NCBI GenBank assembly: GCA_965200595.1
Contig: CBDAUE010000004.1
Location: 20,796 to 84,795 of the forward strand
Length of the DNA stretch: 64,000 nt
Reading direction: 5' to 3'
Source: Thermodesulfobacteriota bacterium
Lineage (GTDB): Bacteria; Desulfobacterota_D; UBA1144; Nemesobacterales; Nemesobacteraceae
In this document: in pieces, positions 35,227 through 56,587 of the stretch
Position numbering within the stretch: the first letter of the stretch is position 1
Layout of the letters: every line of letters starts with the position of its first letter
Notes under the pieces: model-generated
Told to the model about the DNA's origin: nothing
The model's input: only the letters and a program-made list of their open reading frames with translations
Databases searched by the model: none
Made by a program: the position numbers and the translations under genes

Positions 35227-35295
35227 CTGTTTCGCGTCTTAAAAGTCTTGGACAAAGAGTTTTTATTCGGTTATACAGATTGCCTGTTTTTTTGC

Positions 35296-35370: not shown

Positions 35371-35387
35371 TCTGAATTGATTTAAAC

Positions 35388-35465
35388 GGGGCCGTAGTTC
35401 AGCCTGGTTAGAACGCTGGCCTGTCAAGCCAGAGGTCGCGGGTTCAAATCCCGTCGGTCCCGCCA
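35388..35465 (+). tRNA. tRNA-Asp (anticodon GTC).
   Basis: GGGGCCGTAGTTCAGCCTGGTTAGAACGCTGGCCTGTCAAGCCAGAGGTCGCGGGTTCAAATCCCGTCGGTCCCGCCA. Confidence 0.9.
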
Positions 35466-35568
35466 CCCCGATTGAAAAACTGCACGGAATCTGGAGCTGT
35501 GTGTGTGGGGTTCCAGCTTTTTTGTGTATAGTTTTCGCGTTAGATTCCGTTGCGGGAAATTCATATCA

Positions 35569-37029: not shown

Positions 37030-37064
37030 AATCAGAAACTGTTCTATGGAACTTGGTTCTCAAA

Positions 37065-38417: not shown

Positions 38418-38482
38418 AAAAAACGGGCAGGACGGAGTTTTGACTATGGTTTCCGTTGAGTTATCATTTCTTCACCGAACGG

Positions 38483-38574
38483 GGAGAGGTGGCCGAGTGG
38501 TCGAAGGCGCTCGATTGCTAATCGAGTAAGGGGTGAAAGCCCCTTCGTGGGTTCGAATCCCACTCTCTCCGCCA
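38483..38574 (+). tRNA. tRNA-Ser (anticodon GCT), long variable arm.
   Basis: GGAGAGGTGGCCGAGTGGTCGAAGGCGCTCGATTGCTAATCGAGTAAGGGGTGAAAGCCCCTTCGTGGGTTCGAATCCCACTCTCTCCGCCA. Confidence 0.9.
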
Positions 38575-38640
38575 CTTCTGCTTTGTATTCCACATTAATG
38601 AGGGCTTTATACCAAGGTAACGTTTGAAGGAATTGTTGCG

Positions 38641-38795
38641 TCCGCACTTGGTCGAAACTGGCAATTCATTTAGGGAGATCGGCGCTGAATCCCGCCTGAA
38701 TCAGACAATTCGGCTTTGAAATTGCCGGAATACCCCCTCCCGCTGTGTGGTTCCAAAAATCTCAACCTCGAAAAACCCCCTACTACGCAAATGCC
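38641..38795 (+). repeat. Copy A of a roughly 160-bp repeated intergenic element (X), just downstream of tRNA-Ser.
   Basis: About 75% identical to the reverse complement of 47322-47486. Conserved blocks: GGCTTTGAAATTGCCGGAATACCCCC and CCAAAAATCTCAA.C..CGAAAAACCC..TACTACGCAAATGC. Confidence 0.6.
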
Positions 38796-38945
38796 TTTCT
38801 TTCTTGCATTTTTGCAGAAATTTTGTTACTCTACATTTGGTAGTTTCAAACCTGAAACGCAACTTTTGGTGTATTGATTTATGTGGGAATTATAGCGATA
38901 ATTAGACAAACTTAGCAGGAGGTCATTTGCTAAGCTAAGGGACTG

Positions 38946-39158
38946 CTATTTCTTCACCTTGATTTTTCTTGAGGCTTGAAGGTCTCTGTCCGCATTGCGG
39001 AAGATTGCCTTTGCCAGTTCCTCCGGCGTTGTGTCTATGCGGGGTATCTTCCGGATCTCGGGTCTGCCTCGGGGATTTTTAATCCGGGATTTGTTCTTTT
39101 TCATGATTCTTACCCAAGGGTGTTTTTCATTCTCAGGGCAATGATAACAGCAATTCAA
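38946..39158 (-). CDS. Small ORF (70 aa) inside the IS1595 3' region. It is translationally coupled (ATGA overlap) to the transposase stop. Possible passenger, or spurious.
   Basis: Basic protein MNCCYHCPENEKHPWVRIMKKNKSRIKNPRGRPEIRKIPRIDTTPEELAKAIF. It lies inside the IS inverted repeats. Confidence 0.25.
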   Translation of the reverse strand: MNCCYHCPENEKHPWVRIMKKNKSRIKNPRGRPEIRKIPRIDTTPEELAKAIFRNADRDLQASRKIKVKK

Positions 39159-39570
39159 GATACAAGCTCTTTATAGGGAAGCTTCTTGCCAACCAACCCC
39201 TTGGCCAACAGCGCCATCTGCTCTATAGTGTCCATCTCTCTTGCATTATGCCTGCCCGCAAACTCCGTAACATAGCGGTCCAGATGTTTCTCGCTCATGT
39301 GATGGTAAGTTCCGTAGTACCCTCTGTTCAAAGCAGCCCAGAAGGATTCCACGCCGTTTACATGGGCTTTTTCTCTTACATACTCTCCCACACTGTGATT
39401 AACCGCTTCATGTCTGTAGTTCTTCTTCCCAAGACCCATATACCCCCTGTTCTGATCGGTGTATACCGTAGAACCTTCTTTCACAGCCTCCTCTACCATG
39501 CGTTGAAGTGTGATGCTCGATACCGGCCTAGTCACTTTTGCCCTGATCTTGCTGCCCCCACGCTCCTTAA
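39155..39570 (-). pseudogene. IS1595-family transposase, C-terminal fragment (DDE_Tnp_IS1595).
   Basis: ...KERGGSKIRAKVTRPVSSITLQRMVEEAVKEGSTVYTDQNRGYMGL...HEAVNHSVGEYVREKAHVNGVESFWAALNRGYYGTYHHMSEKHLDRYVTEFAGRHN is the ISXO2-like conserved core. Confidence 0.8.
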
Positions 39571-40890
39571 AGAAGTGGACCCCAAAAATCAGACAGCACC
39601 TTAAGTGTATTTCCTTGGTATTCTAAAAGAGTATACAGGAGGTACATAATGAAGAGTAAAAGACGTAATCATTCACCGCAGTTCAAGGCAAAGGTAGCGT
39701 TTTTGGCGGTAAAAGGAGACAAGACAGTAGCGGAGCTTGCCCGGCAGTTTGAGGTTCATCCCAATCAGATAAGCATGTGGAAGAAGAAGCAGCTCGGCAA
39801 CGCCGCGGACAAAGTGTTCGGCCAGGGGGCGGGCAGCAAGGCGGCGGGCGAGAGCAAGTACGTAAACCAGCTTGAATCCAAGGTGGGCCAGCTGACGCTG
39901 GAGAACGATTTTTTATCAAAGGCGCTCGGTCGGCAGCGGCGCAAGAAGTTGGTAGTGCGCGGCCGGGCACTTTCTTTGGTAAGGCAGTGCAAACTGCTGG
40001 ATATAAATCGCTCAAATATTTACTACAAACCTGTGGGGGTATCCCCGCAGGACGAAGAGATTGTGAAGAAGATTGACAGGATCTACATTAAGTATCCGTT
40101 TAAGGGTTCAAGAAGGATGGTGTACGCCCTTAAGGCACAGGGCGTACAGGTGGGCAGAAAGCGTGTTATGAGGCTTATGGGGATACGAGGGCTTGCTCCC
40201 GGCCCCCAGACTACAAAGAAAGGGGGAGCAGAGCACAGGATATACCCGTATCTGCTGCGGGGGAAGACTGTAGAGCTTCCCGGGCAGGTATGGGCGGCAG
40301 ACATAACGTATATAGAGATGAGCAGGGGTTTTGTGTATCTGTGTGCGGTAATGGACTGGCACTCGTGCAAGGTTCTTAGCTGGAGAGTGTCTAACACAAT
40401 GGACAGCAGTTTTTGCGTGGAGGCTCTGGAAGAAGCGCTTTACAAGTATGATAAGCCCGAGATATTCAACACCGATCAAGGAAGTCAGTTCACAAGTGAA
40501 GAGTTTACGGGAGTTCTTAAAGACAGAGATATAAAGATAAGCATGGACGGCAAGGGAAGCTGGAGAGACAATGTTTTTGTGGAGAGGCTTTGGAGAAGTG
40601 TTAAGTACGAGGAAGTGTATCTGATGGCATATGAATCCGTTGCCTCGGCAAAGGCAGGTATAGGGAAGTGGATAGATTTTTACAATAAAAAAAGACCACA
40701 TCAGGGGCTTGGAATGAAAACACCGGATGAGGTTTACTATGGTCTTGGGACAGCACAGAAGAATGTGGCTTGAAGCAATGAGACAGACAGAGCAGAGAGT
40801 TTATGGTTTTGGGAGTCTTAAAGATGGTTATGCGTTGGTGGGAATACACTTAAGAAAACAAAAATGCTGTCTAAAAAAGGGGACCACCTC
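39571..40890 (+). mobile_element. IS3-family insertion sequence, copy 3.
   Basis: Same IRs as the other copies. Flanks are TAA and GTC, so there is no target-site duplication. The left flank is the IS1595 fragment and the right flank is the cas9 remnant. Confidence 0.9.
39649..40773 (+). CDS. IS3-family transposase (374 aa, intact).
   Basis: Near-identical to the copy at 9325-10449. Confidence 0.9.
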   Translation: MKSKRRNHSPQFKAKVAFLAVKGDKTVAELARQFEVHPNQISMWKKKQLGNAADKVFGQGAGSKAAGESKYVNQLESKVGQLTLENDFLSKALGRQRRKKLVVRGRALSLVRQCKLLDINRSNIYYKPVGVSPQDEEIVKKIDRIYIKYPFKGSRRMVYALKAQGVQVGRKRVMRLMGIRGLAPGPQTTKKGGAEHRIYPYLLRGKTVELPGQVWAADITYIEMSRGFVYLCAVMDWHSCKVLSWRVSNTMDSSFCVEALEEALYKYDKPEIFNTDQGSQFTSEEFTGVLKDRDIKISMDGKGSWRDNVFVERLWRSVKYEEVYLMAYESVASAKAGIGKWIDFYNKKRPHQGLGMKTPDEVYYGLGTAQKNVA

Positions 40891-41124
40891 TGTCTATGCA
40901 ACCGTCATACAGACGCACTGTTGAATCCTCAAATTCAGCATTGAGTCCGTTAAAAACCACAAATTGTCTACCCGAATAGGTGATCACATAAAAATATATC
41001 TCCCCTGATTTCCAGGGAGCTTTTCTCCAGCAGGGCCTGAATCGAGTCAATGCTCTGGATAGAACCTCTGCTTGCAGCAATTGCGAGAGCCCTAGCGGAG
41101 TAATAGAGTTGACAATCTTCCTAG
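40891..41124 (-). pseudogene. cas9: Degenerate continuation of the cas9 remnant between IS1182 copy A and IS3 copy 3.
   Basis: Minus-strand frames read RAKALGRLSTLLLR(stop) and ...QLYYSARALAIAASRGSIQS. These are co-linear with Cas9 residues about 125-160 (NmeCas9 [27 protein letters not shown]; SpyCas9 LIYLALAHMIKFRG). Low complexity, so this is tentative. Confidence 0.35.
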
Positions 41125-42660
41125 GAGTCTGTCGGGCTTTAGCGGTCATTTAATGTTAAAACAACGGTATCAAGATGTCTGAGAAGGAGAAGACAATGAG
41201 ACGGAGGTTTGTATCAGCAGACCGCAAGACGCCGCAGATGTTTCCGCCTACAATAGAAGAGTATCTGCCCGAAGACCATCTTGCCCGGTTTGTGGTGGAG
41301 ATAGTTGAGCAGCTGGATCTGAGAAGGCTGACGGAAGCGTATTCGGGCAGGGGGTCGGCAGCGTATCATCCGGGAATGAAGGTGGCTCTTCTGTTCTACG
41401 GATACGCGACGGGGACATTCTCTTCCCGGAAGCTTGAGAAGGCAACATATGACAGTGTGGCGTACAGGTATATATGCGCTAACAGCAATCCGGATCATGA
41501 CAGCATAAACAGGTTCCGCAAGAGGTTTGGCAAGGAGCTTGGGGTATTGTTTGTACAGATACTGCAGATAGCGGGACAGATAGGGATGGGCACGGTGAGT
41601 GTGGATGGCACGAAGATAAAGGCTAATGCGAGCAGGCATAAGGCACTGAGCTGGAAGAGGGCAAGGAAGATAGAAAAGCAGCTGAACAAAGAAGTGAAGG
41701 AACTGATGAGACTTGCACGGGAGGCTGACAACTCTAAACTGCCAGAGGATATGAATGTTCCCGAAGAACTTCAGAGACGGGAAGCGAAGCGTGAGATACA
41801 GGAGCGGGCAAAGCACAGGTATGAGCGGGAGTCAGAAGTGTACGGGGAGAAGGTAGAGAAGCGGGAACAGTATGAGAAGCAAAGCGGGAAGAAGGCAGGA
41901 GGGAGCAGACCGAGGGATAAGGATCAGGTGAATCTTGTGGACGGAGATTCGCGGATAATGCCTTCGGGAGGGGGATTTGAGCAGGCATACAACGCTCAGG
42001 GTGCAGTGGATGTGGAGAGCAGACTTATAGTGACCAGGCATGTAACGCAGAACACAAACGACAAGCGTGAGATGGAGCCCGTGCTTGAGCAGTTAAAGGA
42101 GAATGAGCAGAGGCTTGGCAAGGCTGAGAATCTGCTTGCCGACAGCGGATATTACAGTGCAAGCAACGTTAACTTATGTGACAGGGCGGGGATAAAGCCT
42201 TATATATCCAAACGCAGGGAGAAGCACAACAGACCGTTTTGGGAGAGATTCGCACAGTGCAATGAGGAGGAGAAAGAGCCGGCAACACCGGTTGAAGACA
42301 TGCAGAGGAGGCTTGGAACATCCGCAGGCAAAAAGATGTACTCAAAACGCAAGTCAACGATAGAGCCTGTGTTCGGAATAATGAAGCAGGTGATGGGATT
42401 CCGGCAGTTTATGGTGCGGGGGCTTGAAGCTGTGCGCGGAGAGTGGAATCTTGTGTGCATAGGGTACAACCTGAAGAGAATGTATGCGTTGAAGGGCTGA
42501 CAAAGAGGTGAGAGAGCAGAGAATATTGGGGATTTGAGGTAAAAACAGCTCCCCGAAGCTTAGCTGAACCCCCAAAATCAAGGATTTTTGCCGATATGAC
42601 TTTCACCAGCTCTGAATCAGTTGGATTTCCCCTCAATTGTTCGCTAAGAGCGACAGACTC
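41125..42660 (+). mobile_element. IS1182/IS5-like insertion sequence, copy A (about 1.54 kb). It is inserted into cas9.
   Basis: Terminal IRs GAGTCTGTCGGGCTTTAGCG on the left, with GAGTCTGTCGCTCTTAGCG as the reverse complement of the right end. Flanking CTAG at 41121-41124 and CTTG at 42661-42664 form a probable 4-bp target duplication with one mismatch. A second, inverted copy is at 54730-56265. Confidence 0.85.
41175..42500 (+). CDS. IS1182-family (IS5-like) transposase with a DUF772/InsH N-terminal domain.
   Basis: EDHLARFVVEIVEQLDL...AYSGRGSAAYHPGMKVALLFYGYATGTFSSRKLEKATYDSVAYRYICANSNPDHDSINRFRKRF. 441 aa. Confidence 0.85.
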   Translation: MSEKEKTMRRRFVSADRKTPQMFPPTIEEYLPEDHLARFVVEIVEQLDLRRLTEAYSGRGSAAYHPGMKVALLFYGYATGTFSSRKLEKATYDSVAYRYICANSNPDHDSINRFRKRFGKELGVLFVQILQIAGQIGMGTVSVDGTKIKANASRHKALSWKRARKIEKQLNKEVKELMRLAREADNSKLPEDMNVPEELQRREAKREIQERAKHRYERESEVYGEKVEKREQYEKQSGKKAGGSRPRDKDQVNLVDGDSRIMPSGGGFEQAYNAQGAVDVESRLIVTRHVTQNTNDKREMEPVLEQLKENEQRLGKAENLLADSGYYSASNVNLCDRAGIKPYISKRREKHNRPFWERFAQCNEEEKEPATPVEDMQRRLGTSAGKKMYSKRKSTIEPVFGIMKQVMGFRQFMVRGLEAVRGEWNLVCIGYNLKRMYALKG

Positions 42661-43036
42661 CTTGGGCTTTTGCTCTTGCTTTTGCTTTTGCTCTTATAGT
42701 GTAGGGGTCTCCAAGTCTGTTGAGTTCTTTTTCTGGAGAGAGATTGTTTTTAAGTTCTTCAGGAAGAAAACCTTTTAGAATCAGATAATTTCTGATGCGG
42801 CCTTTACGTCTGTTGCGGCGCTGTATCTGCCTCCTCTGAAGTCGCGATTCTCTTCGTTTCCTGTTCTTTGGGGTAGAAGATTTGTCTTCAATGGACCTGA
42901 TAAATATACGGCTTCCGCAGTCAATAAATTTCACGGGTTCTTTATTCTTTTCTTCTATAACGCTCCAGCCAATCGAATTTGTTCCTACGTCAAGTCCTAT
43001 AACATATTCTGGCAATTTACATCCTTTAGTACTCAT
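42661..43036 (-). pseudogene. cas9: Cas9 N-terminal fragment (about 125 codons: RuvC-I motif plus arginine-rich bridge helix), truncated by IS1182 copy A.
   Basis: MSTKGCKLPEYVIGLDVGTNSIGWSVIEEKNKEPVKFIDCGSRIFIRSIEDKSSTPKNRKRRESRLQRRQIQRRNRRKGRIRNYLILKGFL...LGDPYTIRAKA. Compare NmeCas9 [39 protein letters not shown]...ARRLARSVRRLTRRRAHRLLRARRLLKREGVL...NTPWQLRAAAL. RBS GAGGT precedes the ATG at 43034-43036. The last 7 residues of the track ORF are IS sequence. Confidence 0.75.
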
Positions 43037-43039
43037 TTT

Positions 43040-43216
43040 CTGACCTCAGACTCTGAATTCTGGTTGCTTTTTCAGCTATGCTCTTATAGCATAACACAAG
43101 GGGTTTATAAAACTGGCTGAATGTGCCACGAATTTGCTATTCATAACAAGAAGCAAATGCTTCGTAGGCAATCTCTAAGGAGAACCAAAGGCCTCGCATC
43201 GGGGCCTTTTTTTTAG
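43040..43216 (+). ncRNA. Candidate orphan tracrRNA-like small RNA, transcribed divergently from the cas9 start and ending in an intrinsic terminator.
   Basis: A non-coding 335-nt gap lies between the cas9 start and era. Stable hairpins: CAGCTATGCT-CTTAT-AGCATA at 43073-43097, and ATTTGCT...AGCAAAT. The terminator AAAGGCCTCGCATCGGGGCCTTTTTTTT lies at about 43187-43216. The location (upstream of and antisense to cas9) matches the type II-A/II-C tracrRNA position. It is unverified without a repeat array. Confidence 0.35.
43187..43216 (+). terminator. Rho-independent terminator (GC stem, 9-nt loop, T8).
   Basis: AAAGGCC TCGCATCGG GGCCTTT followed by TTTTTTTT. An A-tract upstream makes it potentially bidirectional. 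Confidence 0.6.
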
Positions 43217-43372
43217 TTTTCCTCAGTTCCGGCAAGGTTAGCGTTTTGAGAATCAAGCTTTTATTCGGATAATGAAGATAAAGCTGTTTCGCTCTTCGGT
43301 AGTTTCAAATTTGAAAGCAGGACTTATAAAGAGCAGAATTGTCTGCAAAAAAAAGGGGAGGAGTAGTTTTTC

Positions 43373-44278
43373 ATGCCGGATGAGCACTTAAAAGATAACT
43401 TCAGATCTGGATTTATCTCCGTGATAGGACGGCCCAACGTGGGCAAATCCACCCTTGTGAACTCCATTGTCGGAGAAAAAGTTTCGGCAGTATCAGATAA
43501 GCCGAGCACTACCAGAAACAGAATCTTGGGAGTGAAGACTTTTGATGATTCCCAGCTGGTTTTTCTTGATACCCCGGGTGTCTACAGGGAGAAAAGCAGA
43601 CTTGGAAAATCCATGGCCCGAGCGGTAAACGGTGCTCTCTCAGACGCTGATCTGGTGGCATTTGTTACAGATGTTGAAAAACCTTTCGGAGCGGCTGATG
43701 AATCCATACTGAAAATGCTAAGAAAGCCCTCCTTGTTTGTTGTAAACAAGATCGACAAGATGAAAAAATCAAAACTCCTGTCGATACTTTCGGCTGCCGA
43801 GAGATTTTCCGAGAAGTTCCTCGAGATAGTTCCCATCTCGGCTCTTAACAACGACGGAGTGGAAGAGCTAACGCAGCTTTTAAAAAAACACCTACCCGAA
43901 GGGCCTAAATATTTCCCCGACGACATTTTCACGGATCAGCCTGAAATTTTCTACGTAAGCGAACTCATAAGGGAGAAGGTGTTTAACCTTACGAGAAAGG
44001 AAATTCCTTATAAAGTGGCGGTGGTGGTCTCGGGATTCAGCGAGGATGCGGAACGGAATCTGATCAGGATAAGCGCGGAAATCTATGTTGAAAGAAAAAG
44101 TCATAAGGGGATTCTTATAGGAAAGGGCGGGGCAATGCTAAAGCAGATTGGTTCTGAGGCCAGGGTTGATATTGAAAGGATTCTGGGAGTTAAGCTGTTC
44201 CTTGAGCTTTGGGTTAAGGTTAAAGAGAACTGGACTCAGAGCGATTTCCTGATAAATGAATTCGGTTACGGAAACTGA
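43373..44278 (+). CDS. era: GTPase Era.
   Basis: G1 GRPNVGKST, G3 DTPG, G4 NKID, and a C-terminal KH domain (GKGGAMLKQIG). Confidence 0.95.
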   Translation: MPDEHLKDNFRSGFISVIGRPNVGKSTLVNSIVGEKVSAVSDKPSTTRNRILGVKTFDDSQLVFLDTPGVYREKSRLGKSMARAVNGALSDADLVAFVTDVEKPFGAADESILKMLRKPSLFVVNKIDKMKKSKLLSILSAAERFSEKFLEIVPISALNNDGVEELTQLLKKHLPEGPKYFPDDIFTDQPEIFYVSELIREKVFNLTRKEIPYKVAVVVSGFSEDAERNLIRISAEIYVERKSHKGILIGKGGAMLKQIGSEARVDIERILGVKLFLELWVKVKENWTQSDFLINEFGYGN

Positions 44279-44291
44279 ACCGCAAGAGTCT

Positions 44292-45077
44292 TTATTCTCC
44301 CTTAAAAAAAGCTTTTCTTTTCTCAAGAAAAGCTTTTTTCCCTTCCCTGGAGTCGCTGCTTTGCCTCACATCGGCGAAGGCAGACTTTATGAGTTTTTCA
44401 TCCTCTTCTGATAGTCGCCTTCCTTGTTCCCAGATGTTTATCATTTTTTTTATCGAGATCATGGAAAGCGGGGCGTTTGTGCTTATTCCGTCGGCAAGCC
44501 CGTAGGTGAATTCTTCAAGGCTTTGTCTTTTCACAATATGGTCGACGAGCCCTTTTTCCAAAGCTCTTTGGGCGTTAACCGGGTTTCCGGTGAGAAAAAG
44601 CTCTCTGGTGAAGCCGGGACCTACCAGGTTGAGGAACTGCTTTATTCCGCTGTAGTGATAAGTGACTCCGAGCTTTACGGGCGGGATTGCAAGTTTTACG
44701 TCATCGGCGCATACTCTCAGATCGCAAGTAACTGCGAGTTCAAGTCCGGCCCCGAAGGCATGACCGTTTATCATTGCTATTACGGGAAGAGGGTAGGATT
44801 TGACTGCACGCATTGCTTCGGTCAGGGGATGACTGTTTTCTATTGCAGTTTCTTCTTCGGATATTGCGGCTATATCGTATCCTGAGCAGAAAGCTCTTTT
44901 ACCGCTTCCAGTTATAACAACGCACCTGATTTCAGTTGTTTTTCCCAGCCGTAAAAATTCCTCGGTTAAAGATTTTAGAATTTCGGGGGTGAGGGAATTT
45001 CTTTTCCGAGGTCGATTAATAGTAAGGGTGCAGACTGAATCTTCGGTTTTTACGAGAATCTCTTCGCTCTTGATCAT
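44292..45077 (-). CDS. Enoyl-CoA hydratase/isomerase (crotonase) family protein.
   Basis: Crotonase fold: INGHAFGAGLELAVTCDLRV...; C-terminal KAFLEKRKAFFKGE. Confidence 0.85.
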   Translation of the reverse strand: MIKSEEILVKTEDSVCTLTINRPRKRNSLTPEILKSLTEEFLRLGKTTEIRCVVITGSGKRAFCSGYDIAAISEEETAIENSHPLTEAMRAVKSYPLPVIAMINGHAFGAGLELAVTCDLRVCADDVKLAIPPVKLGVTYHYSGIKQFLNLVGPGFTRELFLTGNPVNAQRALEKGLVDHIVKRQSLEEFTYGLADGISTNAPLSMISIKKMINIWEQGRRLSEEDEKLIKSAFADVRQSSDSREGKKAFLEKRKAFFKGE

Positions 45078-45421
45078 AGAGATATTATTATATATTTCAT
45101 CAGTTTAGATATTAATACTATGCCTTCGGCATAGCAATTGGAAAGGGAAAACAGTGGAAGATGATGGTGAGGGTTCTTTAGATTTTCGGAAGATCTCATC
45201 TTCCCGAGCATCGCGGCCGCCTAGGGTCTGGGAGAAGTTAACGGTAAGAGTTAATACACGGCTTAAGCAGATTATGAAAAAACAGAATTTCGTGAGAAAC
45301 CTGAAGAAGTAGGAAATTTTGGATCCGCAACGGACGGAGGATAACAATTGGCGCTCTAGGCGTCCATGTCCGACTGCGGTAGAAGACCCGAAGTTGTTCT
45401 GACTTTCAGGCGGAGGCATTT

Positions 45422-45895
45422 ATGACGAAACGAAAAACCCTTTATCTGGCTAATCCCTACGGTTTTTCTGCACAACAGCGCGAAGGACCTCTGGCGGTTC
45501 TTGTCGGGGTCCTGGAATCGGTGGGAGCTGAAGTATGGGAGCCGTTTTCCCGGAATAATCAGATTGATAAGGCGGTTGCCGGTTGGGCCTACCGAGTTGG
45601 ACAGTCGGATCTTAGGGATGTGCGTGAGGCCGATGGGTTGTTTGCGGTTGTAAACGGATGTCCGCCTGATGAAGGAGTTATGGTGGAACTGGGAATGGCT
45701 CTTGCCTGGGATAAGCCTGTATTTCTGTTCAGGGACGACTTCCGCAGATGCACTGACAGTGAAGTCTATCCGCTTAATCTGATGCTGTTTGCAGGCATGC
45801 CTGAGTATGGCTGGGAAGCTTACTTGTATGGTTCCGTGGAAGAACTTTCCGATCCTGACAAAGCACTTGTCAGGTGGCTCAAAGACGCAGAATGA
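45422..45895 (+). CDS. Nucleoside 2-deoxyribosyltransferase-like protein (157 aa).
   Basis: N-terminal LYLANPYGFS and the acidic catalytic region GVMVELGMA are typical of the NDT-like Rossmann family. Inference. Confidence 0.5.
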   Translation: MTKRKTLYLANPYGFSAQQREGPLAVLVGVLESVGAEVWEPFSRNNQIDKAVAGWAYRVGQSDLRDVREADGLFAVVNGCPPDEGVMVELGMALAWDKPVFLFRDDFRRCTDSEVYPLNLMLFAGMPEYGWEAYLYGSVEELSDPDKALVRWLKDAE

Positions 45896-46008
45896 CTTCT
45901 GTTCTGTATTGAGCATTGGGCCATTCCAGAATTTACCGGTCTGCTGCTCTTAAGTATTCTGGCTATCCTGCCTGCTTTTACGGAATTACGGAACGGACAG
46001 ATGGGGAG

Positions 46009-47232
46009 TTATTGCTCCTTATTACTTCGCATCTTCCACCAAATTACCCCTAATATGAAAAGTAAAACAATACATACGGTAATGACTCCACGTATAATTC
46101 TGCTTTTCGGTTCCGTTAGGTACGCCTCTCCTTCCTCTGGGTAAAAACCCGAGCCAAGAACATACATATCATCACCGAGTGTTACCTTCTTAACATAGCC
46201 TACCTTGAATGAAGTTCCCTTTGCCTTGCCGACTTCATCAATTTCATCTCCCTCAATCGCCGGATTGTCCCACAGATAATAAACAAAACCTCCCCCCTGC
46301 TCTGCTACTCTGAGCATTTCCTTGCCAACCTCAACGCCGTTTTCGTCTACTAAATTATAAGTGGGTGTTCTGAGGAGGCTCGGATCGTTACCATTAAACA
46401 CTACTAGACCCTGCCTTGTGAAGGCGAAGAGATAAATTTCATTGTATTTCCAAGTTTTGTTTTTGTTGCTTGCCGTCAGCAGGTTTGTGATGTCCATTTT
46501 GCCCTGAGAGATTTCATAAACGTGACTTAAGAATTCGGCAGCTTTCTCCACAAAATTCTTCAGAGTGTCGGGATCTTTTACCGAATCTGCTCTCACTTCG
46601 GGCGCGTATCTTTTCACGATTTCAGGCACGGTCGGTACCACTTCATCGTGATGAAGACCCCCGATCAGGACAAGTTCAATTCCAAGCGCAGAGACTGAAC
46701 AGTTGATTGCGTAAGCCCACCTGCGCAAGGTGTTGCTGTCTGATGGATCATTTGGGTCATCCCAGTAATAATCAACAAATCCTCCCCGTTTATTTGCTTG
46801 AGCGGCGTTGATAAGTTTCTGCACTACGTCGGTTCCTTTTGCGTCCCGCCAAGTGCTTATGTCGGTGCCGGTTGCCGATTCATAATATCCGTGAGCTACG
46901 GATCTGCCTTGTTTGTCAACTAAAATCAGGTAGTTGGAACCGGACTTCCAGTCCTCATGAAAATATATTTCTCCCAGTATCTTCTGCCATAGATCAAGGC
47001 TCTGTTCGTGCGGATCCTGAAGCTCCCAGTGCGCTTTTGCGTGCAGTACAAATTCCCTTATGGCACTTCGGCTGTTTCTTGCTTTGTCGGCCGTTACAGT
47101 TTCTTTACTGGCATTTGCATGCTTGCCGTGGGCCGAGGCCGAATGCATGTGAAAAAAAACGCATATGAATACCAGTACGCAAACAAAGACTCCCTTTAAT
47201 ACCGAGATTTTAAAATTATGACTTTTCAGCAT
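46009..47232 (-). CDS. Membrane-anchored periplasmic double Cache-like ligand-binding protein with no output domain. Start set at MLKSHNF; the track ORF extends to 47307.
   Basis: Two Cache-like modules each carrying GGFVDYYWDDPNDP / GGGFVYYLWDNPAI. N-terminal signal/TM, C-terminal TM helix ITVCIVLLFILGVIWW, then stop. Confidence 0.55.
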   Translation of the reverse strand: MLKSHNFKISVLKGVFVCVLVFICVFFHMHSASAHGKHANASKETVTADKARNSRSAIREFVLHAKAHWELQDPHEQSLDLWQKILGEIYFHEDWKSGSNYLILVDKQGRSVAHGYYESATGTDISTWRDAKGTDVVQKLINAAQANKRGGFVDYYWDDPNDPSDSNTLRRWAYAINCSVSALGIELVLIGGLHHDEVVPTVPEIVKRYAPEVRADSVKDPDTLKNFVEKAAEFLSHVYEISQGKMDITNLLTASNKNKTWKYNEIYLFAFTRQGLVVFNGNDPSLLRTPTYNLVDENGVEVGKEMLRVAEQGGGFVYYLWDNPAIEGDEIDEVGKAKGTSFKVGYVKKVTLGDDMYVLGSGFYPEEGEAYLTEPKSRIIRGVITVCIVLLFILGVIWWKMRSNKEQ

Positions 47233-47321
47233 GGTGTTTGTGGCAACTCTAGCGAATCGGATTAAAGAAAAATAAAGTAATAACGTACCGGTTTTTTCTA
47301 AAGTCACAACAGGTCAAGCGA

Positions 47322-47486
47322 AGCATTTGCGTAGTAAAGGGTTTTTCGGGGTTTGAGATTTTTGGAATAACGTAGCGGGGGGGGGTATTCCGGCAATTTC
47401 AAAGCCGGATAGCCTGATCCAGGCCGATTCAGACACAACTCAGCGTCGATTCACCTGAGAATCGCCATTTCCGACCAAGCGCGGAT
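47322..47486 (-). repeat. Copy B of the roughly 160-bp X element, in the 5' region of the double-Cache gene.
   Basis: The reverse complement aligns with 38641-38795, including the GGCTTTGAAATTGCCGGAATACCCCC hairpin block and the ...TACTACGCAAATGC end. Confidence 0.6.
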
Positions 47487-47661
47487 ACAGCAGTCCCTTC
47501 AAGGTTAATTTCTCTTTAATTTTTCTGTGAACAATTAAGAGACGCTAACTAGTATCGGCGTAAAGGTATCTCATAAAAAGTTGCGTTTCGAACTTGAAAC
47601 CACGGATAAATTCACCGCAATCAGCGGGTTCTGGCGAGTCCGATCTCTGCTATCGCTTCTT

Positions 47662-48273
47662 TTACTCTTGACCGACCCCCAGGTTCAGTAGCCCGTTTAT
47701 TCCGAGTTTAGTATCCGCATGTGCCCTCAAAACAATTTCCGCTGCGGCTCTTGCATCTTCTCCGGCATCGTGGTGGCGGAAGTTAATACCGAGATCGCAG
47801 GCAATATTCCCGAGATTGTAACCCCTAAGAGCGTATTTGTCCGGCCAAGCGCGTCGCGCTACCTGCGCACTGTCAATCCAGATTTCATAACGAAGAGATT
47901 TTCCGCATTCTTCAAATGCTTTTGAGACTGCCCTGCGGTCAAAAAATGTATGGCTTATGACGATTCCTTCCAGATATAGTGCGATTCTGTCGCATATATC
48001 TTCAAACCGGGGGCAGCCTTTTACCATGTTATGGTCTATGCCGTGTATGGCGACATTGTGAGGATCAAAAAAATCATGCGGATCAATAAATTGAACCCAG
48101 ACCTGTTTTATTTCCGCCTCTCTGACCACGGCGATTCCCACCTGACAGATACTTGAAACGTTTGAATTGGCGGTCTCGACGTCAACGGCGACAAAATCCA
48201 GATTTTTAATCGTAGGGAGATCGATTTTTCCGTTTTGTCCGCCTAGTGTTTCCGTCTTTCTGCCCTTTTTCAT
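47662..48273 (-). CDS. DEDDh 3'-5' exonuclease (DnaQ / Pol III epsilon-like), stand-alone.
   Basis: Exo I FVAVDVETAN, Exo II HNVAIHGIDH region, Exo III HHDAGEDARAAAEI. Confidence 0.75.
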   Translation of the reverse strand: MKKGRKTETLGGQNGKIDLPTIKNLDFVAVDVETANSNVSSICQVGIAVVREAEIKQVWVQFIDPHDFFDPHNVAIHGIDHNMVKGCPRFEDICDRIALYLEGIVISHTFFDRRAVSKAFEECGKSLRYEIWIDSAQVARRAWPDKYALRGYNLGNIACDLGINFRHHDAGEDARAAAEIVLRAHADTKLGINGLLNLGVGQE

Positions 48274-48403
48274 TATCTTCTGTATTATGAACCATAATCG
48301 GTATTTTTCAGCAATGTTTCAGACGTTAAGGCGGCTTCGGGCTTTAAACTCAGATTATATTGTTTATAATTTCCTAAATTAGAGATTTTTCCGGAGACAT
48401 AAA

Positions 48404-48907
48404 GTGCCGTTATACGAATATGAATGCGACAGTTGCATGGAGAGTTACAATGCGGATATAGACAATTTGGTTGCCAAGCTTACGAAGACAAACGCAAAGA
48501 AGGTTTTCAAGCAGAACCCTAATTTCTGTTACGCTGAAGTAACAAGTGACAAAAACGGAAAACTGTTTTTTGAACTGGGAGAGAAAGGGGTAGGCGGTGC
48601 GAGGAGGTTTCGTTACAAGCTTGACAACGGGAAGGTTCTTTACCTTGAGCTTAAGGATTTTCGTTTCAACCACCTTGTGTATGGGGATGACGACCAGGAT
48701 GAAGTCAGATGCCCTCTCTGCGACGGTTCGGATACTGTGAGAAGGGTTTTTTCCACCTTCAAGGCCATATTTGACGACAAGAGCAAAAGAGCTCCGGGTC
48801 CGGGGGATGAACTTAGATGGCATCTTGAATACAAGCAGCAAAAGGACGAAGAAATAGCGAGCGACTGGGTCGGGCAGGATCACCTGAACCAGTATTTCAA
48901 TAGATAG
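48404..48907 (+). CDS. FmdB-like split zinc-ribbon protein with an internal insertion of about 85 aa (167 aa). GTG start.
   Basis: MPLYEYECDSC ... RCPLCDGSDTVRRVFS. This is the FmdB-family zinc-ribbon pattern interrupted by an extra domain. Confidence 0.5.
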   Translation: MPLYEYECDSCMESYNADIDNLVAKLTKTNAKKVFKQNPNFCYAEVTSDKNGKLFFELGEKGVGGARRFRYKLDNGKVLYLELKDFRFNHLVYGDDDQDEVRCPLCDGSDTVRRVFSTFKAIFDDKSKRAPGPGDELRWHLEYKQQKDEEIASDWVGQDHLNQYFNR

Positions 48908-48916
48908 GAGACGCAA

Positions 48917-49420
48917 ATGCCCCTCTATGAATTTGAATGTGCCAAATGCAGAGATAATGTTGAGAGATCACTCAAGGCTCTTGAGAAAAAGCGGGACAAG
49001 AAAACCGTAAAAAACCTTGTGGAGAAATATGAAAATATTTACGCAATAGAAATTATTGACCTTGAGTCCGAAAAGATAGTTGCAAGGCACGGAAGGAAGG
49101 GGAAAGACTCCGTGTTTAACGATTTCTATCTTAATGACGGAACTCTTCTTGCGCTTTTCAATATGCGGAACTACAGGTTCTCCGAGCTTATATACGAAGA
49201 GGGAGACGAGAAAAACGTAAAGTGTTACTGCGGGGAGAAAAAGAAAGTGGAGAAAGTTATATCGACTTTTGCTTTTACCAGGGACCTTTCAACCGATATG
49301 CCGAAGCCCGATCTTTCGAACCTGCCGCCTTCGGTAAGAAACAGAACTTTCGTAGGAGACTATATAGAGGAAAAGGACAGGCCTAAGAAGCACAGGCCCA
49401 CCATGGGTAGAAAAGAGTAA
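48917..49420 (+). CDS. Paralogue of the preceding zinc-ribbon protein (167 aa).
   Basis: MPLYEFECAKC ... KCYCGEKKKVEKVISTF. Same length and architecture as its neighbour, but low identity. Confidence 0.5.
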   Translation: MPLYEFECAKCRDNVERSLKALEKKRDKKTVKNLVEKYENIYAIEIIDLESEKIVARHGRKGKDSVFNDFYLNDGTLLALFNMRNYRFSELIYEEGDEKNVKCYCGEKKKVEKVISTFAFTRDLSTDMPKPDLSNLPPSVRNRTFVGDYIEEKDRPKKHRPTMGRKE

Positions 49421-49455
49421 GGGCCGTCTAGTCCTCCCTATCCCTTCCCATGCTG

Positions 49456-50145
49456 CTATTTTTTCTGTGCGTATTCTTCCTTGCGCCTGCCGAACCTTCT
49501 CTCAAGTTCATCCGATATATCCTGAGGGCTGAGGCCCGCTTCACATAGAAGCACCATGGAATGAAACCACAAATCGGTAAGTTCGTAGACGAGTTCGTCT
49601 TTATCTCCGTTCTTGGCGGCTATTACCACTTCGCCCGCCTCTTCTCCGATTTTTTTAAGTATTCTGTCAAGCCCGCCCTTCATAAGGGCGCTTACGTAGG
49701 AACCTTCCGTAGGGTTGCGTTTCCTGTTTTCTATTACGGAGAATACTTTTGTGAGTGAAGATTCCTCAAACAGGGGGGCAGCATTTTCTTGCATGTCTGC
49801 CGATCTGTAAAAGCATGTCGGCTCTCCGGTGTGACAGGCCACTCCGGTCTGCTCTACTGTTATCAGCACCGTATCTGAGTCGCAGTCAATGAAGATTTCT
49901 TTTACATCCTGAAAGTGGCCTGATTCCTCCCCTTTGTTCCAGATTTTTCTTCTTGATCTGCTCCAGAAATGGGTTCTTCCGGTTTTTACTGTCATTTCAA
50001 GAGCCTCTTTGTTTGCATATGCGAGCATAAGTACCTGCCCGCTTGAAGCTTCCTGCACTATCACGGGCAGAAGACCCTGCTCGTTGAACTTGAGTTTTTC
50101 CATGTCCATATCCACCGGGATTCCATTTGGCTGAAAGTACGTCAA
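49456..50145 (-). CDS. hisI: Bifunctional phosphoribosyl-AMP cyclohydrolase / phosphoribosyl-ATP pyrophosphatase.
   Basis: HisI block [26 protein letters not shown]...[17 protein letters not shown]...CHTGEPTCF, followed by the HisE region. Confidence 0.9.
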
Positions 50146-50280
50146 GATAATAATTGCAAAGCTTTGGTTGTCAAAAAGCAGGCGGGGTGGAGAAACGGGT
50201 AGTACATTTGAGCTTGGGTCCGGTATTTTTCCGTCCTGACAGTTTTTCCCTTAACTGCTGCTGATTTTATATGTACAATT

Positions 50281-52050
50281 GTGAGACTGCTTTGCACGGG
50301 AGGAATTGAATCTTTGTCTTTAATAAAATATTTTGCTAATGTCTCAACCGCACTGCTTTTTGGCTTTTTCCTTGTCGCTGTTGGTTTTTCGCTCTCACTT
50401 TCTTGCAGCTCGGACTCGGAGGAGCGCGTGAGTTTTGATCATGGAGTCGCAAGCGGCGACCCTCTGGAGAACAGGGTTATCCTCTGGACGAGAGTCACTC
50501 CGCAGGAATCTCAGGAAACAGTCAGTGTAAAAGTCGAAGTTGCTTCGGATAAGGAGTTTGGAACCATCGTTTACAGCTCCGCTAAGCAGGCTACAGCCGA
50601 GAGCGACTACACCGTGAAAATTGATGCCGAGGGGCTTTCGCCCGGGACGGTTTACTATTACCGGTTCCGCTCAGGCGAGGCTGAGTCCGTTATCGGCCGT
50701 ACCAAGACCTTGCCCCGGGGCGATGTGGATTTGGTCAGGCTGGCAGTGGTTTCATGTGCAAACTATCCTCTCTCCCATGGTGGTTACTTTAACGTTTACG
50801 GCCATGCGGCGGAGGCAGATGTCGATGCCGTGGTTCATCTGGGCGATTATATCTACGAGTACGGCAGGGCCCCGGGTTCAGGAGACGACAATCCCGAAGC
50901 AGCAGAAAGGGATTTTCCGGAAGGCAGCGGGGAGATCATAACGCTTGATGACTACAGGGGTCGCTACGCTCTATACAGAACCGATCCGCAGCTTCAGGCC
51001 ATTCACGCCGCGCATCCGTTTATCGCTGTCTGGGATGATCACGAGGTCGCAGATAACGCTTATGCTGGTGGTGCACTGAACCATAATGAGGGTGAAGGCA
51101 GTTTCGATGCCAGAAAGCAGGCTGCGCTTCAGGCCTATTACGAGTGGATGCCGATTCGTCCCGCAGAAGACAATGATTCCCAACGTATCTACGGCAGTTT
51201 TTCCTTCGGAAATCTGGTTGACCTTTTTATGCTCGACACCCGACTTGCCGGACGGGAAAAACAACTTGCTTACGAAGATTATTTCGACCAAACCGGTTTT
51301 AACATTTTGTGTTTCACTCAGGATGTCGGTTCTGTGGACCGAACGCTACTTGGTTCCGAGCAGCTGCTTTGGCTTCAGGAAAACCTTGTCGGCTCAACCT
51401 CTGTCTGGCAGGTTCTGGGCCAGCAGGTGCTTATGGGCAGAATGAACGTTCCCGCTGAACTGCTTTCCCATTTTGCCAATCCGACACCGCAGGTAGTGGA
51501 TATTGTTGATGAGCTGGCTGGGATTAAAGAGAGGGTGCTTCAAGGTGATCCTTCCGTGACTCAAACGGAGCGGGGGCGTGTAAGCTTCGGGCTTCCGTAT
51601 AACCTTGATGCTTGGGACGGTTACCCCGCAGAGAGGGAAGCGGTGCTCGGAACAGCTTACAGTGAGGATAAAAATCTTGTGGTTCTTTCCGGAGATTCGC
51701 ATAACGGATGGGCGAACAACCTAAAAGATATAAATGGCAACCAGGTAGGCGTTGAGTTTGCCGGTCCGGCTGTGTCCTCAGAAGGGCTTGCAGTTATTCT
51801 CGGACTTGGATCCGATCCAGAAAGGTCTGGAGAACTTGCCCGAAGTCTGGAAGTGCTGGTCGACGACCTTGTCTACTCTAACATATATGACTACGGATAT
51901 ATGATAGTAAGTTTTACCCCGGAAAAGGCTCAGTCTCAATGGATATACGTGGATACGATAAAGCAGCCGGAATTCATGGAACTTAAGTCAAGCGCAAAGA
52001 CGCTCAGTGTGCTTGCGGGAGAAGGGAACCGCAGCGTTGTTTCTGACTGA
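50281..52050 (+). CDS. PhoD-like alkaline phosphatase / phosphodiesterase.
   Basis: FIAVWDDHEVADN and PhoD metallophosphatase blocks. N-terminal signal / lipobox-like LSLSCSS. Confidence 0.85.
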   Translation: MRLLCTGGIESLSLIKYFANVSTALLFGFFLVAVGFSLSLSCSSDSEERVSFDHGVASGDPLENRVILWTRVTPQESQETVSVKVEVASDKEFGTIVYSSAKQATAESDYTVKIDAEGLSPGTVYYYRFRSGEAESVIGRTKTLPRGDVDLVRLAVVSCANYPLSHGGYFNVYGHAAEADVDAVVHLGDYIYEYGRAPGSGDDNPEAAERDFPEGSGEIITLDDYRGRYALYRTDPQLQAIHAAHPFIAVWDDHEVADNAYAGGALNHNEGEGSFDARKQAALQAYYEWMPIRPAEDNDSQRIYGSFSFGNLVDLFMLDTRLAGREKQLAYEDYFDQTGFNILCFTQDVGSVDRTLLGSEQLLWLQENLVGSTSVWQVLGQQVLMGRMNVPAELLSHFANPTPQVVDIVDELAGIKERVLQGDPSVTQTERGRVSFGLPYNLDAWDGYPAEREAVLGTAYSEDKNLVVLSGDSHNGWANNLKDINGNQVGVEFAGPAVSSEGLAVILGLGSDPERSGELARSLEVLVDDLVYSNIYDYGYMIVSFTPEKAQSQWIYVDTIKQPEFMELKSSAKTLSVLAGEGNRSVVSD

Positions 52051-52487
52051 TTCCGCGTATCGTGCGCCTGCGATAAAACCTTTAATGAAGCTGTGAAGCG
52101 CGATTAATTAATTGAGCCTGTTTATAAGTAGAAGCCGCAACAGGTGGATCATTGCCAAGTAATACCTGATTCAGGGCTTTGAGGGCAAGGCATTGTCATT
52201 GTCTCAGTCTGCTTCAGTTTTCCATAGTTCTGTCAGCATCTTTCTGTGACAGTATTGCAAAGTCCATTTCCTTGGGGAAGTACTGCCTTACAAGCCCGGT
52301 TGCGTTCAGTCTGACCGAAGCCTCGACAAGCGAAACAAAAAAGTGTGAACGGATGGCTGACAAGCTGTTCGGGAAGGACTCGGGGCTTGCCGGGCGGTGT
52401 AAATACTTCACAGCGGGCAGGGAACTTGAAACCACGAATTGTTACACTGATACGTGTTTTAAAGGAAAAAAGAGGAAGTTTATATTT

Positions 52488-53808
52488 AGAAGTGGACCCC
52501 AAAAATCAGACAGCATCTTAAGTGTATTTCCTTGGTATTCTAAAAGAGTATACAGGAGGTACATAATGAAGAGTAAAAGACGTAATCATTCACCGCAGTT
52601 CAAGGCAAAGGTAGCGTTTTTGGCGGTAAAAGGAGACAAGACAGTAGCGGAGCTTGCCCGGCAGTTTGAGGTTCATCCCAATCAGATAAGCATGTGGAAG
52701 AAGAAGCAGCTCGGCAACGCCGCGGACAAAGTGTTCGGCCAGGGGGCGGGCAGCAAGGCGGCGGGCGAGAGCAAGTACGTAAACCAGCTTGAATCCAAGG
52801 TGGGCCAGCTGACGCTGGAGAACGATTTTTTATCAAAGGCGCTCGGTCGGCAGCGGCGCAAGAAGTTGGTAGTGCGCGGCCGGGCACTTTCTTTGGTAAG
52901 GCAGTGCAAACTGCTGGATATAAATCGCTCAAATATTTACTACAAACCTGTGGGGGTATCCCCGCAGGACGAAGAGATTATGAAGAAGATTGACAGGATC
53001 TACATTAAGTATCCGTTTAAGGGTTCAAGAAGGATGGTGTACGCCCTTAAGGCACAGGGCGTACAGGTGGGCAGAAAGCGTGTTATGAGGCTTATGGGGA
53101 TACGAGGGCTTGCTCCCGGCCCCCAGACTACAAAGAAAGGGGGAGCAGAGCACAGGATATACCCGTATCTGCTGCGGGGGAAGACTGTAGAGCTTCCCGG
53201 GCAGGTATGGGCGGCAGACATAACGTATATAGAGATGAGCAGGGGTTTTGTGTATCTGTGTGCGGTAATGGACTGGCACTCGTGCAAGGTTCTTAGCTGG
53301 AGAGTGTCTAACACAATGGACAGCAGTTTTTGCGTGGAGGCTCTGGAAGAAGCGCTTTACAAGTATGATAAGCCCGAGATATTCAACACCGATCAAGGAA
53401 GCCAGTTCACAAGTGAAGAGTTTACGGGAGTTCTTAAAGACAGAGATATAAAGATAAGCATGGACGGCAAGGGAAGCTGGAGAGACAATGTTTTTGTGGA
53501 GAGGCTTTGGAGAAGTGTTAAGTACGAGGAAGTGTATCTGATGGCATATGAATCCGTTGCCTCGGCAAAGGCAGGTATAGGGAAGTGGATAGATTTTTAC
53601 AATGAAAAAAGACCACATCAGGGGCTTGGAATGAAAACACCGGATGAGGTTTACTATGGTCTTGGGACAGCACAGAAGAATGTGGCTTGAAGCAATGAGA
53701 CAAACAGAGCAGAGAGTTTATGGTTTTGGGAGTCTTAAAGATGGTTATGCGTTGGTGGGAATACACTTAAGAAAACAAAAATGCTGTCTAAAAAAGGGGA
53801 CCACCTCT
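52488..53808 (+). mobile_element. IS3-family insertion sequence, copy 4.
   Basis: Same IRs as the other copies. Flanks are TTT and ATC, so there is no target duplication. The right flank is the N-terminal half of the IS1595 element. Confidence 0.9.
52566..53690 (+). CDS. IS3-family transposase (374 aa, intact). The track ORF is extended upstream to 52179 through the non-IS flank.
   Basis: Identical N-terminus MKSKRRNHSPQF, with ATG at 52566 after GGAGG. Confidence 0.9.
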   Translation: MKSKRRNHSPQFKAKVAFLAVKGDKTVAELARQFEVHPNQISMWKKKQLGNAADKVFGQGAGSKAAGESKYVNQLESKVGQLTLENDFLSKALGRQRRKKLVVRGRALSLVRQCKLLDINRSNIYYKPVGVSPQDEEIMKKIDRIYIKYPFKGSRRMVYALKAQGVQVGRKRVMRLMGIRGLAPGPQTTKKGGAEHRIYPYLLRGKTVELPGQVWAADITYIEMSRGFVYLCAVMDWHSCKVLSWRVSNTMDSSFCVEALEEALYKYDKPEIFNTDQGSQFTSEEFTGVLKDRDIKISMDGKGSWRDNVFVERLWRSVKYEEVYLMAYESVASAKAGIGKWIDFYNEKRPHQGLGMKTPDEVYYGLGTAQKNVA

Positions 53809-54354
53809 ATCTTGTCTTGAGTCCCCGCCCCCATCATCCTGGGTTTTTTCGACCTGTGCATATTGCCATACTTCCCGCCCATATAGGTTTCGTCCACCTC
53901 CACCGCTCCGCCCAGCTTCTCATCCCTTATCCATCCCTGCCTTATCTTCTCCCTGCCTTATCTTCTGAGCTAAAGTCCATGCCGTTGACCGAGCTATCCC
54001 CAAATCCCTGTGAAGCTTCATGCTGGACACGCCTTTAAGATTTGTTGTCATCAAGTACAAAGCCACCACCCACTTGCGCAATGGCGTCTTGCTGCTTCTC
54101 ATTACAGTTCCAGTCCTCACACTGAAATACTTTCGGCAATCCTTGCAGTGATAAGGCATTTTATGCTTCGCCCCGGCAGTACGAGTCCCTGCGCAGTGCG
54201 GACAATGCCTCTGCCCGTTCGGCCAGCGCTGATCCTCAAACCACTTTGTCGCAGATCCCTCATCGGGAAACATCTCAAGCAGTTCCATAACCCCTATTCC
54301 TTTTCTGTGAAACCTTCCAGGGGCCTTGTACTTCCTCTCAGACATTCCTAACAC
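53809..54354 (-). pseudogene. IS1595-family transposase, N-terminal fragment (Zn-ribbon, HTH, start of the DDE domain).
   Basis: GQRHCPHCAGTRTAGAKHKMPYHCKDCRKYFSVRTGTVM...KWVVALYLMTTNLKGVSSMKLHRDLGIARSTAWTL. Downstream, in a second frame, ...VEVDETYMGGKYGNMHRSKKPRMMGAGTQDK runs up to the IS3 junction. Confidence 0.75.
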
Positions 54355-54466
54355 TCCTTAATTACTCTATTTACCTGTCTAATATATTAACTAAAATAGA
54401 GAAAATACCAAGGTTCTAGAAAAAGCTTTTAGGGCTTTGTCTAATTATCGCTATAATTCCCTACAT
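53809..54466 (-). mobile_element. IS1595-family element, left (N-terminal) half.
   Basis: IR TTTGTCTAATTATCGCTATAATTCCCTACAT at 54436-54466. It abuts the right end of IS3 copy 4. Confidence 0.8.
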
Positions 54467-54472
54467 TTTTCG

Positions 54473-54502
54473 TTGACAAGGGTTAGACAATTGACTTATA
54501 AT
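54473..54502 (+). promoter_or_regulatory. Sigma-70-like promoter (TTGACA, 18-nt spacer, TATAAT) for the downstream small secreted-protein gene.
   Basis: TTGACAagggttagacaattgactTATAAT lies immediately outside the IS1595 end. Start codon plus RBS at 54535-54547. Confidence 0.5.
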
Positions 54503-54544
54503 CGGATTAGACTCGTTTTGGTTTGCCCATACATTAAGGAGGGA

Positions 54545-54725
54545 GAAATGAAAACCACCGTTTGCGCTGTTTCGACATTGATCTTGCTCTTCACTAGCGT
54601 GTTGGCCCACGGTCAGCTACGGCCGGACAATCCTGTTTCGACCTTGAACTTGACTGTGGGGAAGAGTTTCAGCACTACGCTCCCTGAAGTTTTGGGGGCC
54701 AACGGGGCGGTGCGTTATTTCTTCC
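54545..54725 (+). pseudogene. Small secreted protein gene (originally about 76 codons), interrupted by IS1182 copy B.
   Basis: MKTTVCAVSTLILLFTSVLAHG signal peptide. The reading frame resumes after the IS at 56266 (…FFPRECKSAQKTNRNSTA) when the 4-bp CTAG duplication is removed. Confidence 0.4.
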
Positions 54726-54729
54726 CTAG

Positions 54730-56265: not shown

Positions 56266-56587
56266 CTAGAGAGTGTAAAAGTGCACAAAAAACCAACAGA
56301 AATAGTACGGCATGAACAAGCTGATCAAGACCCGTCTCCCATCCAAGTCACCGTTGAAGAAGGCAACCACTGGTGGCCGGATTTATGTTGCCGACCCCGA
56401 CTGGCCACAGTTCATCGCATCGGCACTCGCATCCGCTGGGTGGAGACCGGCCGTGCGGGATGACGGCGACGCATGGCCGTGTGGCTCACCCCCACTGATT
56501 GGATCACTATCCTCAAAAACAATAAAGGAAAAGGGTAAAACATGAAAAATTCATGATACACACGAATTAAGCTGATTAAGGAGAAAA

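Follow-up and report, generated by a model that had tools for sequence, protein, structure and literature searches.

How did two parts of one kind of insertion sequence (IS) come to lie 13 kb apart, in unchanged orientation, on either side of housekeeping genes? The question is raised by a 64,000-nt window of contig CBDAUE010000004.1 (20,796-84,795; all coordinates below are positions in this window), in which each part of an IS1595-family element adjoins one of two directly oriented IS3 copies (c3 and c4), and 11.6 kb of other DNA lies between the two IS3 copies. A first-pass annotation had proposed that an IS3 element sat inside an IS1595 element and that homologous recombination between IS3 copies then inserted the intervening DNA. 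The host is a Dadabacteria-like bacterium whose relatives, metagenome-assembled genomes (MAGs) listed at NCBI under Thermodesulfobacteriota or Candidatus Dadabacteria, share ∼79% amino acid identity with it; the GTDB genome set holds no sister genome of the same species, and even the best relative is only ∼79% identical. On balance, the evidence presented here favors a rearrangement scar left by IS activity in an IS-rich chromosome over a functional unit or a new system.

Co-linear IS1595 halves and the missing bases

Profile searches against Pfam and NCBIfam assigned both parts to the IS1595 family (ISXO2-like transposase). The C-terminal part (38885-39570, minus strand) comprises the catalytic DDE half and the right-end inverted repeat (38885-38910), and its open reading frame (ORF; 39155-39535, minus strand) matches PF12762 (DDE_Tnp_IS1595; E=1.4e-26) and positions 119 to 215 of NF033547. 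The N-terminal part (53809-54461, minus strand) comprises the zinc ribbon, the start of the DDE domain, and the left-end inverted repeat (54436-54461); its ORF (53920-54354, minus strand) matches PF12760 (zinc ribbon) and positions 1 to 49 of NF033547. The N-terminal zinc ribbon and the DDE_Tnp_IS1595 domain that mark a transposase of this family are both present, distributed across the two parts. The joined translation of the two pieces was aligned to seven full-length relatives retrieved from a database of 5.8 billion proteins. The halves are co-linear with all seven, with exactly six codons (TPVVAI) absent between ...GAGTQDK and KERGGS..., and comparison with the DNA of one intact relative (L006) placed the gap between the halves at 14 nt.

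Searching for exact matches to the 126-aa ORF of the C half recovered an uninterrupted sibling copy of the element. This copy (L093:9298-10651; ctg105220) is 1,354 bp long and lies on another contig of the same organism, in a different gene neighborhood. The N-terminal part of the window copy is 99.85% identical to L093:9298-9951 and the C-terminal part 99.7% identical to L093:9965-10651, and relative to L093 the window is without 13 to 15 nt (ACCTGTAGTTGCCA[T]), with one base at each junction assignable to either element. The terminal inverted repeats are 26 bp long, perfect, and identical to the ends of L093, which set the true ends of the element at 38885 and 54461. The first-pass annotation had described the two transposase pieces as co-linear, with which the seven intact relatives and L093 agree, and each as joined to a direct IS3 copy; its junction positions were right to within 1 nt. 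Its estimate of about 18 bp missing was slightly high, and its outer ends (38881 and 54466) have been moved inward.

Target duplications distinguish the two copies. An 8-bp, often A/T-rich target duplication is a property of the IS1595 family (PMC12561309), and a perfect A/T-rich one, CTTTTTTT, surrounds the L093 copy. No such duplication surrounds the split element, whose flanks read AAAATGTA and ACATAAAT in element orientation; the first-pass annotation had likewise seen none. In addition, a 16-bp tandem duplication in the N-terminal part (53935-53966; CCCTGCCTTATCTTCT twice, plus strand) shifts the frame of the transposase. The same lesion occurs in L093 (at about 9800) and is absent from the intact relative L006, indicating that the element was already defective when the two copies diverged. 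Neither copy has an intact reading frame, and an extra T in L093 would add a second frameshift; given the ∼2x long-read coverage of that contig, the extra T may be a read error. The closest intact transposase among the 5.8 billion proteins is 84% identical and comes from other, unrelated metagenomes. The window element thus carries the zinc-ribbon and DDE_Tnp_IS1595 domains and terminal inverted repeats of its family, with the A/T-rich 8-bp duplication retained at the sibling, and differs from it in being split, frameshifted, and without a duplication of its own.

Since the window parts share the 16-bp lesion with L093, which has a proper duplication, the data suggest that another source once helped the defective 1.35-kb element to be copied, or that gene conversion homogenized the copies. 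This hint of past copying in trans concerns the 1.35-kb element and not the whole 15.6 kb between the IS1595 ends, which the first-pass annotation had considered mobilizable in trans in principle. The 26-bp ends of that larger unit are intact, but such mobility is otherwise without support, given the lack of a flanking duplication, the frameshifts in both known copies, the 84% identity of the best intact transposase, and a passenger that includes era and hisIE.

IS3 copies, reproducible junctions, and a displaced native block

Four IS3 copies of 1,320 or 1,321 bp, 99.2 to 99.8% identical to one another, are present in the window. Copies c3 (39571-40890, plus strand; 1,320 bp) and c4 (52488-53808, plus strand), delimited by repeat family and BLAST comparison, differ at five sites. 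Copy c1 (9247-10566, plus strand) serves as the reference for normal behavior, and copy c2 (16633-17953, minus strand) was delimited by repeat comparison. The transposase scores 307 bits against NF033516 (cutoff, 160) and matches PF01527, PF13276, PF00665, and PF13683, representing helix-turn-helix domains and the rve integrase core. Members of the IS3 family typically encode two overlapping ORFs joined by a programmed −1 frameshift. Here a single 374-aa ORF (39649-40773 in c3) covers the whole profile in c1, c3, and c4, with no orfA/orfB frameshift arrangement, while one extra G in c2 (window position 17109, IS position 845) shortens its transposase to 267 aa.

Simple insertions of this element generate 3-bp target duplications, AAC around c1 and AGG around a copy inside the McrBC locus of contig L095. 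No 3-bp duplication was found at c2, c3, or c4, whose left/right flanks are AAG/GTC, TAA/GTC, and TTT/ATC, respectively, and cross-pairing of these flanks restores none. The two junctions with IS1595 accordingly show TAA on one side and ATC on the other, as the first-pass annotation had noted in reporting no IS3 duplication there. A missing duplication usually points to an adjacent deletion or to two identical IS copies having recombined (Ngan et al. 2024, PMC11708052). In a study of the IS1595 family, 8-bp repeats were lacking only from copies that formed part of a compound transposon or lay at an inversion (PMC12561309). The absent duplications in the window mark recombination breakpoints. 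Sequence exchange among the copies is also evident at IS positions 29, 796, and 916, where the single-nucleotide polymorphisms (SNPs) sort the four copies into all three possible groupings of two and two, a pattern that indicates exchange between IS3 copies, barring repeated mutation.

The arrangement is reproducible. An exact look-up of the Era protein retrieved contig L001 (ctg136593; 24,232 bp; ∼3x coverage) from another assembly (ERZ25068762), which stems from the same sample as L093. L001 covers window positions 34519 to 54274 with no mismatches and five single-site indels, spans all four junctions between IS3 and its neighbors, and keeps the copy-specific IS3 SNPs. Near-identical repeats crowd the window, with IS3 present four times and IS1182 twice in 64 kb; mis-joins at 1.3-kb repeats would be a natural source of false juxtapositions, and the first-pass annotation had named assembly error as one finding that would overturn its reading. 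The independent contig with all four junctions and the same IS3 SNPs leaves that explanation a negligible probability, and a short-read contig (L002) starts or ends 34 bp inside the first IS1182 copy, as expected at a real repeat boundary. At the junction of c4 with IS1595, L001 (19293-19300) reads ATGCTTG where the window (53809-53815) and L093 read ATCTTG; this is probably a low-coverage long-read indel, though it falls exactly at the junction.

The core of the DNA between c3 and c4 is a block of native genes (43373-52050) recognized by its synteny with relatives: era, an enoyl-CoA hydratase, a nucleoside deoxyribosyltransferase, a Cache protein, an RNase T-like exonuclease, two zinc-ribbon genes, hisIE, and phoD. 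Relatives L089 and L091 have the block genes in identical order, at 70 to 92% amino acid identity to the window, and the gene tables of L088 and L090 show the same order. Beyond phoD and hisIE the relatives continue with rpoZ, a hydantoinase, NUDIX, SSB, glmU, glmS, purD, and rpsL, and on the era side with variable genes. The window keeps the block and none of these neighbors; the hydantoinase ortholog of the host (P0264) lies outside the window, presumably on the 450,856-bp contig that carries hisIE. On the left flank, synteny with the relatives extends from about position 27.2 kb of the window to just past a tRNA-Ser gene (38483-38574) and then ends, and in none of 21 relatives were era-phoD block genes found within 10 kb downstream of this point. 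The conservation of the block among other neighbors, together with the end of synteny on the left, indicates that the core of the c3-c4 segment is displaced native chromosome. The comparison with relatives that the first-pass annotation had called for thus places the era-phoD core in a different neighborhood. In the contigs read, which cover part of the genome, the exact Era and HisIE proteins were found only in the present arrangement, and the native phoD-rpoZ partner junction was not recovered: L094, the one contig read at this locus, begins 283 bp before rpoZ and has no match to either IS3 or the window.

Possible histories of the rearrangement

The identity and co-linearity of the IS1595 parts, the size of the gap, the absence of both kinds of duplication, the displacement of the era-phoD block, the exchange among IS3 copies, and the reproducibility of the arrangement are established, and a history has to account for all of them. 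From the sequences, we lean slightly toward an origin of both halves from one IS1595 copy, and the order and type of the recombination events outlined next are proposed at the same strength. A 1,354-bp IS1595 element, already defective through the 16-bp duplication, would have been interrupted by a 1,320-bp IS3 element. Had a single IS3 insertion been followed by recombination alone, the 3-bp duplication would still be there and no bases would be missing, so an extra event is needed. The likely cause of the loss of 13 to 15 bp of IS1595 and of the expected IS3 duplication is either that a further IS3 copy landed a few bases away and recombined with the first or that a short adjacent stretch was deleted. 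Homologous recombination among the many near-identical copies of IS3 would then have brought 11.6 kb of ordinary chromosome, bordered by IS debris, to lie between two of them. This step could have proceeded by two successive inversions involving three copies, or by excision and reintegration of a circle carrying the block and one IS3; both routes would give the same product and would move the IS1595 parts 13 kb apart with their orientation unchanged. The version with two insertions into a single copy predicts an IS3-IS3 pair, or a single IS3, beside a 21-nt piece (TAAATGGCAACTACAGGTATC). The sequence of events in the first-pass annotation, IS3 within IS1595 and then IS3 recombination, is consistent with the co-linearity, the displaced block, and the exchanged IS3 SNPs, and leaves the lost 13 to 15 nt and the lost duplication unexplained.

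Several observations weigh against a single-copy history. No 8-bp duplication is present at the outer IS1595 ends, and the model requires one more event that is itself unexplained. A loss of 13 to 15 nt is very short for a typical adjacent deletion, and two IS3 insertions within ∼20 bp would need a local preference, none of which could be demonstrated: alignments of flanks with element ends for five copies, which would reveal a preference for targets resembling the ends of IS3 itself, scored no better than shuffles. The reciprocal products (the lost 13 to 15 nt flanked by IS3, or IS3 with the partner flanks) were not found in the contigs read, which cover part of the genome. A scan of Joint Genome Institute (JGI) metagenomes for tandem IS3 copies (spacer, ≤30 nt) and for an uninterrupted IS1595 breakpoint gave no match for either, in a collection that does not include the organism, and exact-protein look-ups of the N-half ORFs and the c4 transposase had no match, gene callers having chosen other ORFs.

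The missing 8-bp duplication would be explained directly if the halves came from two different IS1595 copies, each struck by IS3 at points 13 to 15 nt apart and then joined through IS3-IS3 recombination, with the complementary halves elsewhere or lost. L093 shows that the element is present in at least one other copy, and the two junctions have different 3-bp IS3 flanks. However, such an origin calls for two IS3 insertions, made independently in separate copies of the element and no more than 15 nt apart, without a detectable target preference. The two halves also lie in the same orientation only 13 kb apart, and no orphan complementary halves occur in the accessible contigs, where the only other copy retrieved is uninterrupted. 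We therefore regard a two-copy origin as unlikely, though deserving of consideration. Still more doubtful is a transposase-driven entry of the two IS3 copies and their passenger into IS1595 as one unit, in the form of a compound transposon or by fusion of a circle with an IS3 junction. The bracketing of the passenger by two direct IS3 repeats and the derivation of both outer flanks from the same target element would fit this scenario. It should, however, have produced a 3-bp duplication without loss of target bases, whereas the flanks are TAA and ATC and 13 to 15 nt are missing; era and hisIE, which are expected to be essential or single copy, are part of the passenger, as is IS debris, and no second copy of the unit was found in the contigs read, where the exact Era and HisIE proteins occur only in this arrangement.

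A more speculative possibility, to which we give very little weight, is that the IS3 copy at the IS1595 site arose in one step linked to transposition, without a target duplication and with removal of the 13 to 15 nt and relocation of the 11.6 kb in the same event, or, weaker still, that IS3 has a preferred landing site inside IS1595. Duplication-free, rearrangement-coupled IS movement has been proposed for IS5 and IS481 (Ngan et al. 2024, PMC11708052). The preferred history, interruption of one IS1595 copy followed by IS3 recombination, belongs to a well-known class. An IS inside an IS, copies without target duplications, a native block displaced between identical IS copies, and mosaic SNPs are all features of nested insertion and IS-mediated rearrangement, and the causes that Ngan et al. 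2024 (PMC11708052) list fit the locus. Nothing essential differs; the pairing of IS3 with a defective IS1595 and the loss of 13 to 15 nt are specific to this locus, which raises no new mechanistic question. Compound and pseudo-compound transposons such as Tn7560, which has an ISApl4 copy (IS1595 family) at each of its two boundaries (PMC12561309), similarly hold a passenger between direct IS copies and have bounding copies without direct repeats. In contrast to the Tn7560 type, the passenger here is housekeeping chromosome, there is no duplication of the unit, target bases are missing, no sign of movement is seen in the contigs read, and the outer inverted repeats are those of an IS1595 element that is itself split and defective.

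The IS1595, IS3, and IS1182 elements are new, unnamed members of their families in an uncultured lineage. A few very active IS families are reshuffling the genome, as the four IS3 and two IS1182 copies within the 64-kb window show, and the gene order around era, hisIE, and phoD consequently cannot be read as operon or island structure. For annotation, the locus provides an example of two transposase pseudogenes, 13 kb apart, that represent one kind of element.

Fragments and repeats bordering the block

The first-pass annotation had listed a cas9 remnant, era, hisIE, and a phoD-like gene in the 11.6 kb, all of which are present; it had not mentioned a complete IS1182-family copy (copy a; 41121-42666, plus strand; 1,546 bp), whose 441-aa transposase scores 350 bits against NF033551 (cutoff, 270). 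Between c3 and this copy lies an orphan fragment of 230 bp (40891-41120) with no Pfam or NCBIfam match and no match in the relatives. IS1182 copy a cuts the cas9 remnant, an N-terminal piece of about 120 codons (starting at 42644 or 42667 and ending at 43036, minus strand) that matches positions 1 to 100 of the 1,070 in TIGR01865 (E=2.8e-24) and falls under the cutoff of that profile because it is truncated. No continuation of cas9 was found beyond either IS1182 copy, including past 56270, and we interpret the fragment as debris and not as part of a mobile cassette. In relative L090, cas genes of the Cas_GSU0053 and Cas_GSU0054 families adjoin era, and the era-adjacent position looks like a variable defense-gene site. 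Within the native block, the two zinc-ribbon genes are tandem FmdB-like paralogs of 167 aa each (48404-49420), a pair also kept in L091 and L090.

At the other edge of the block, an orphan fragment of 437 bp (52051-52487) contains a minus-strand ORF (52214-52435) directly left of c4, which is weakly similar to the C terminus of IS30-family transposases (NF033563 positions 231 to 257 of 267; E=0.0044; motif GLVRQYFPK) and may be a remnant of one. Outside the N-terminal IS1595 part, a 262-bp orphan fragment (54462-54723) contains the start of a signal-peptide ORF, cut by IS1182 copy b, and has no Pfam or NCBIfam family match. This fragment was considered as the native neighbor of the left flank on the basis of weak tblastn matches in six relatives, 1 to 3.5 kb downstream of tRNA-Ser, and was rejected: the matches are to a MiaB-like gene out of frame, and the real MiaB-like protein of the relatives has no match to the window.

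IS1182 copy b (54724-56269, minus strand), delimited by repeat comparison, is inverted relative to copy a and differs from it at six sites. The two copies bracket 12 kb (42667-54723) containing the cas9 remnant, the era-phoD block, c4, and the N-terminal IS1595 part, a segment that is potentially invertible through them. Flipping it back would join 40891-41120 and 54462-54723 in frame, a 1-in-3 coincidence, and neither homology nor a usable target duplication supports such an inversion having been undone in this way. Two mutually inverted copies of an 86-nt intergenic repeat are present (38694-38779 and 47339-47424; 84 to 87% identity), and the first ∼50 nt of this repeat recur upstream of rpoZ on L094 (about 90-140; 40 of 50 positions identical). 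It looks like a small dispersed element resembling repetitive extragenic palindromic (REP) sequences or miniature inverted-repeat transposable elements (MITEs), and the short-read contig L002 ends just past its second copy.

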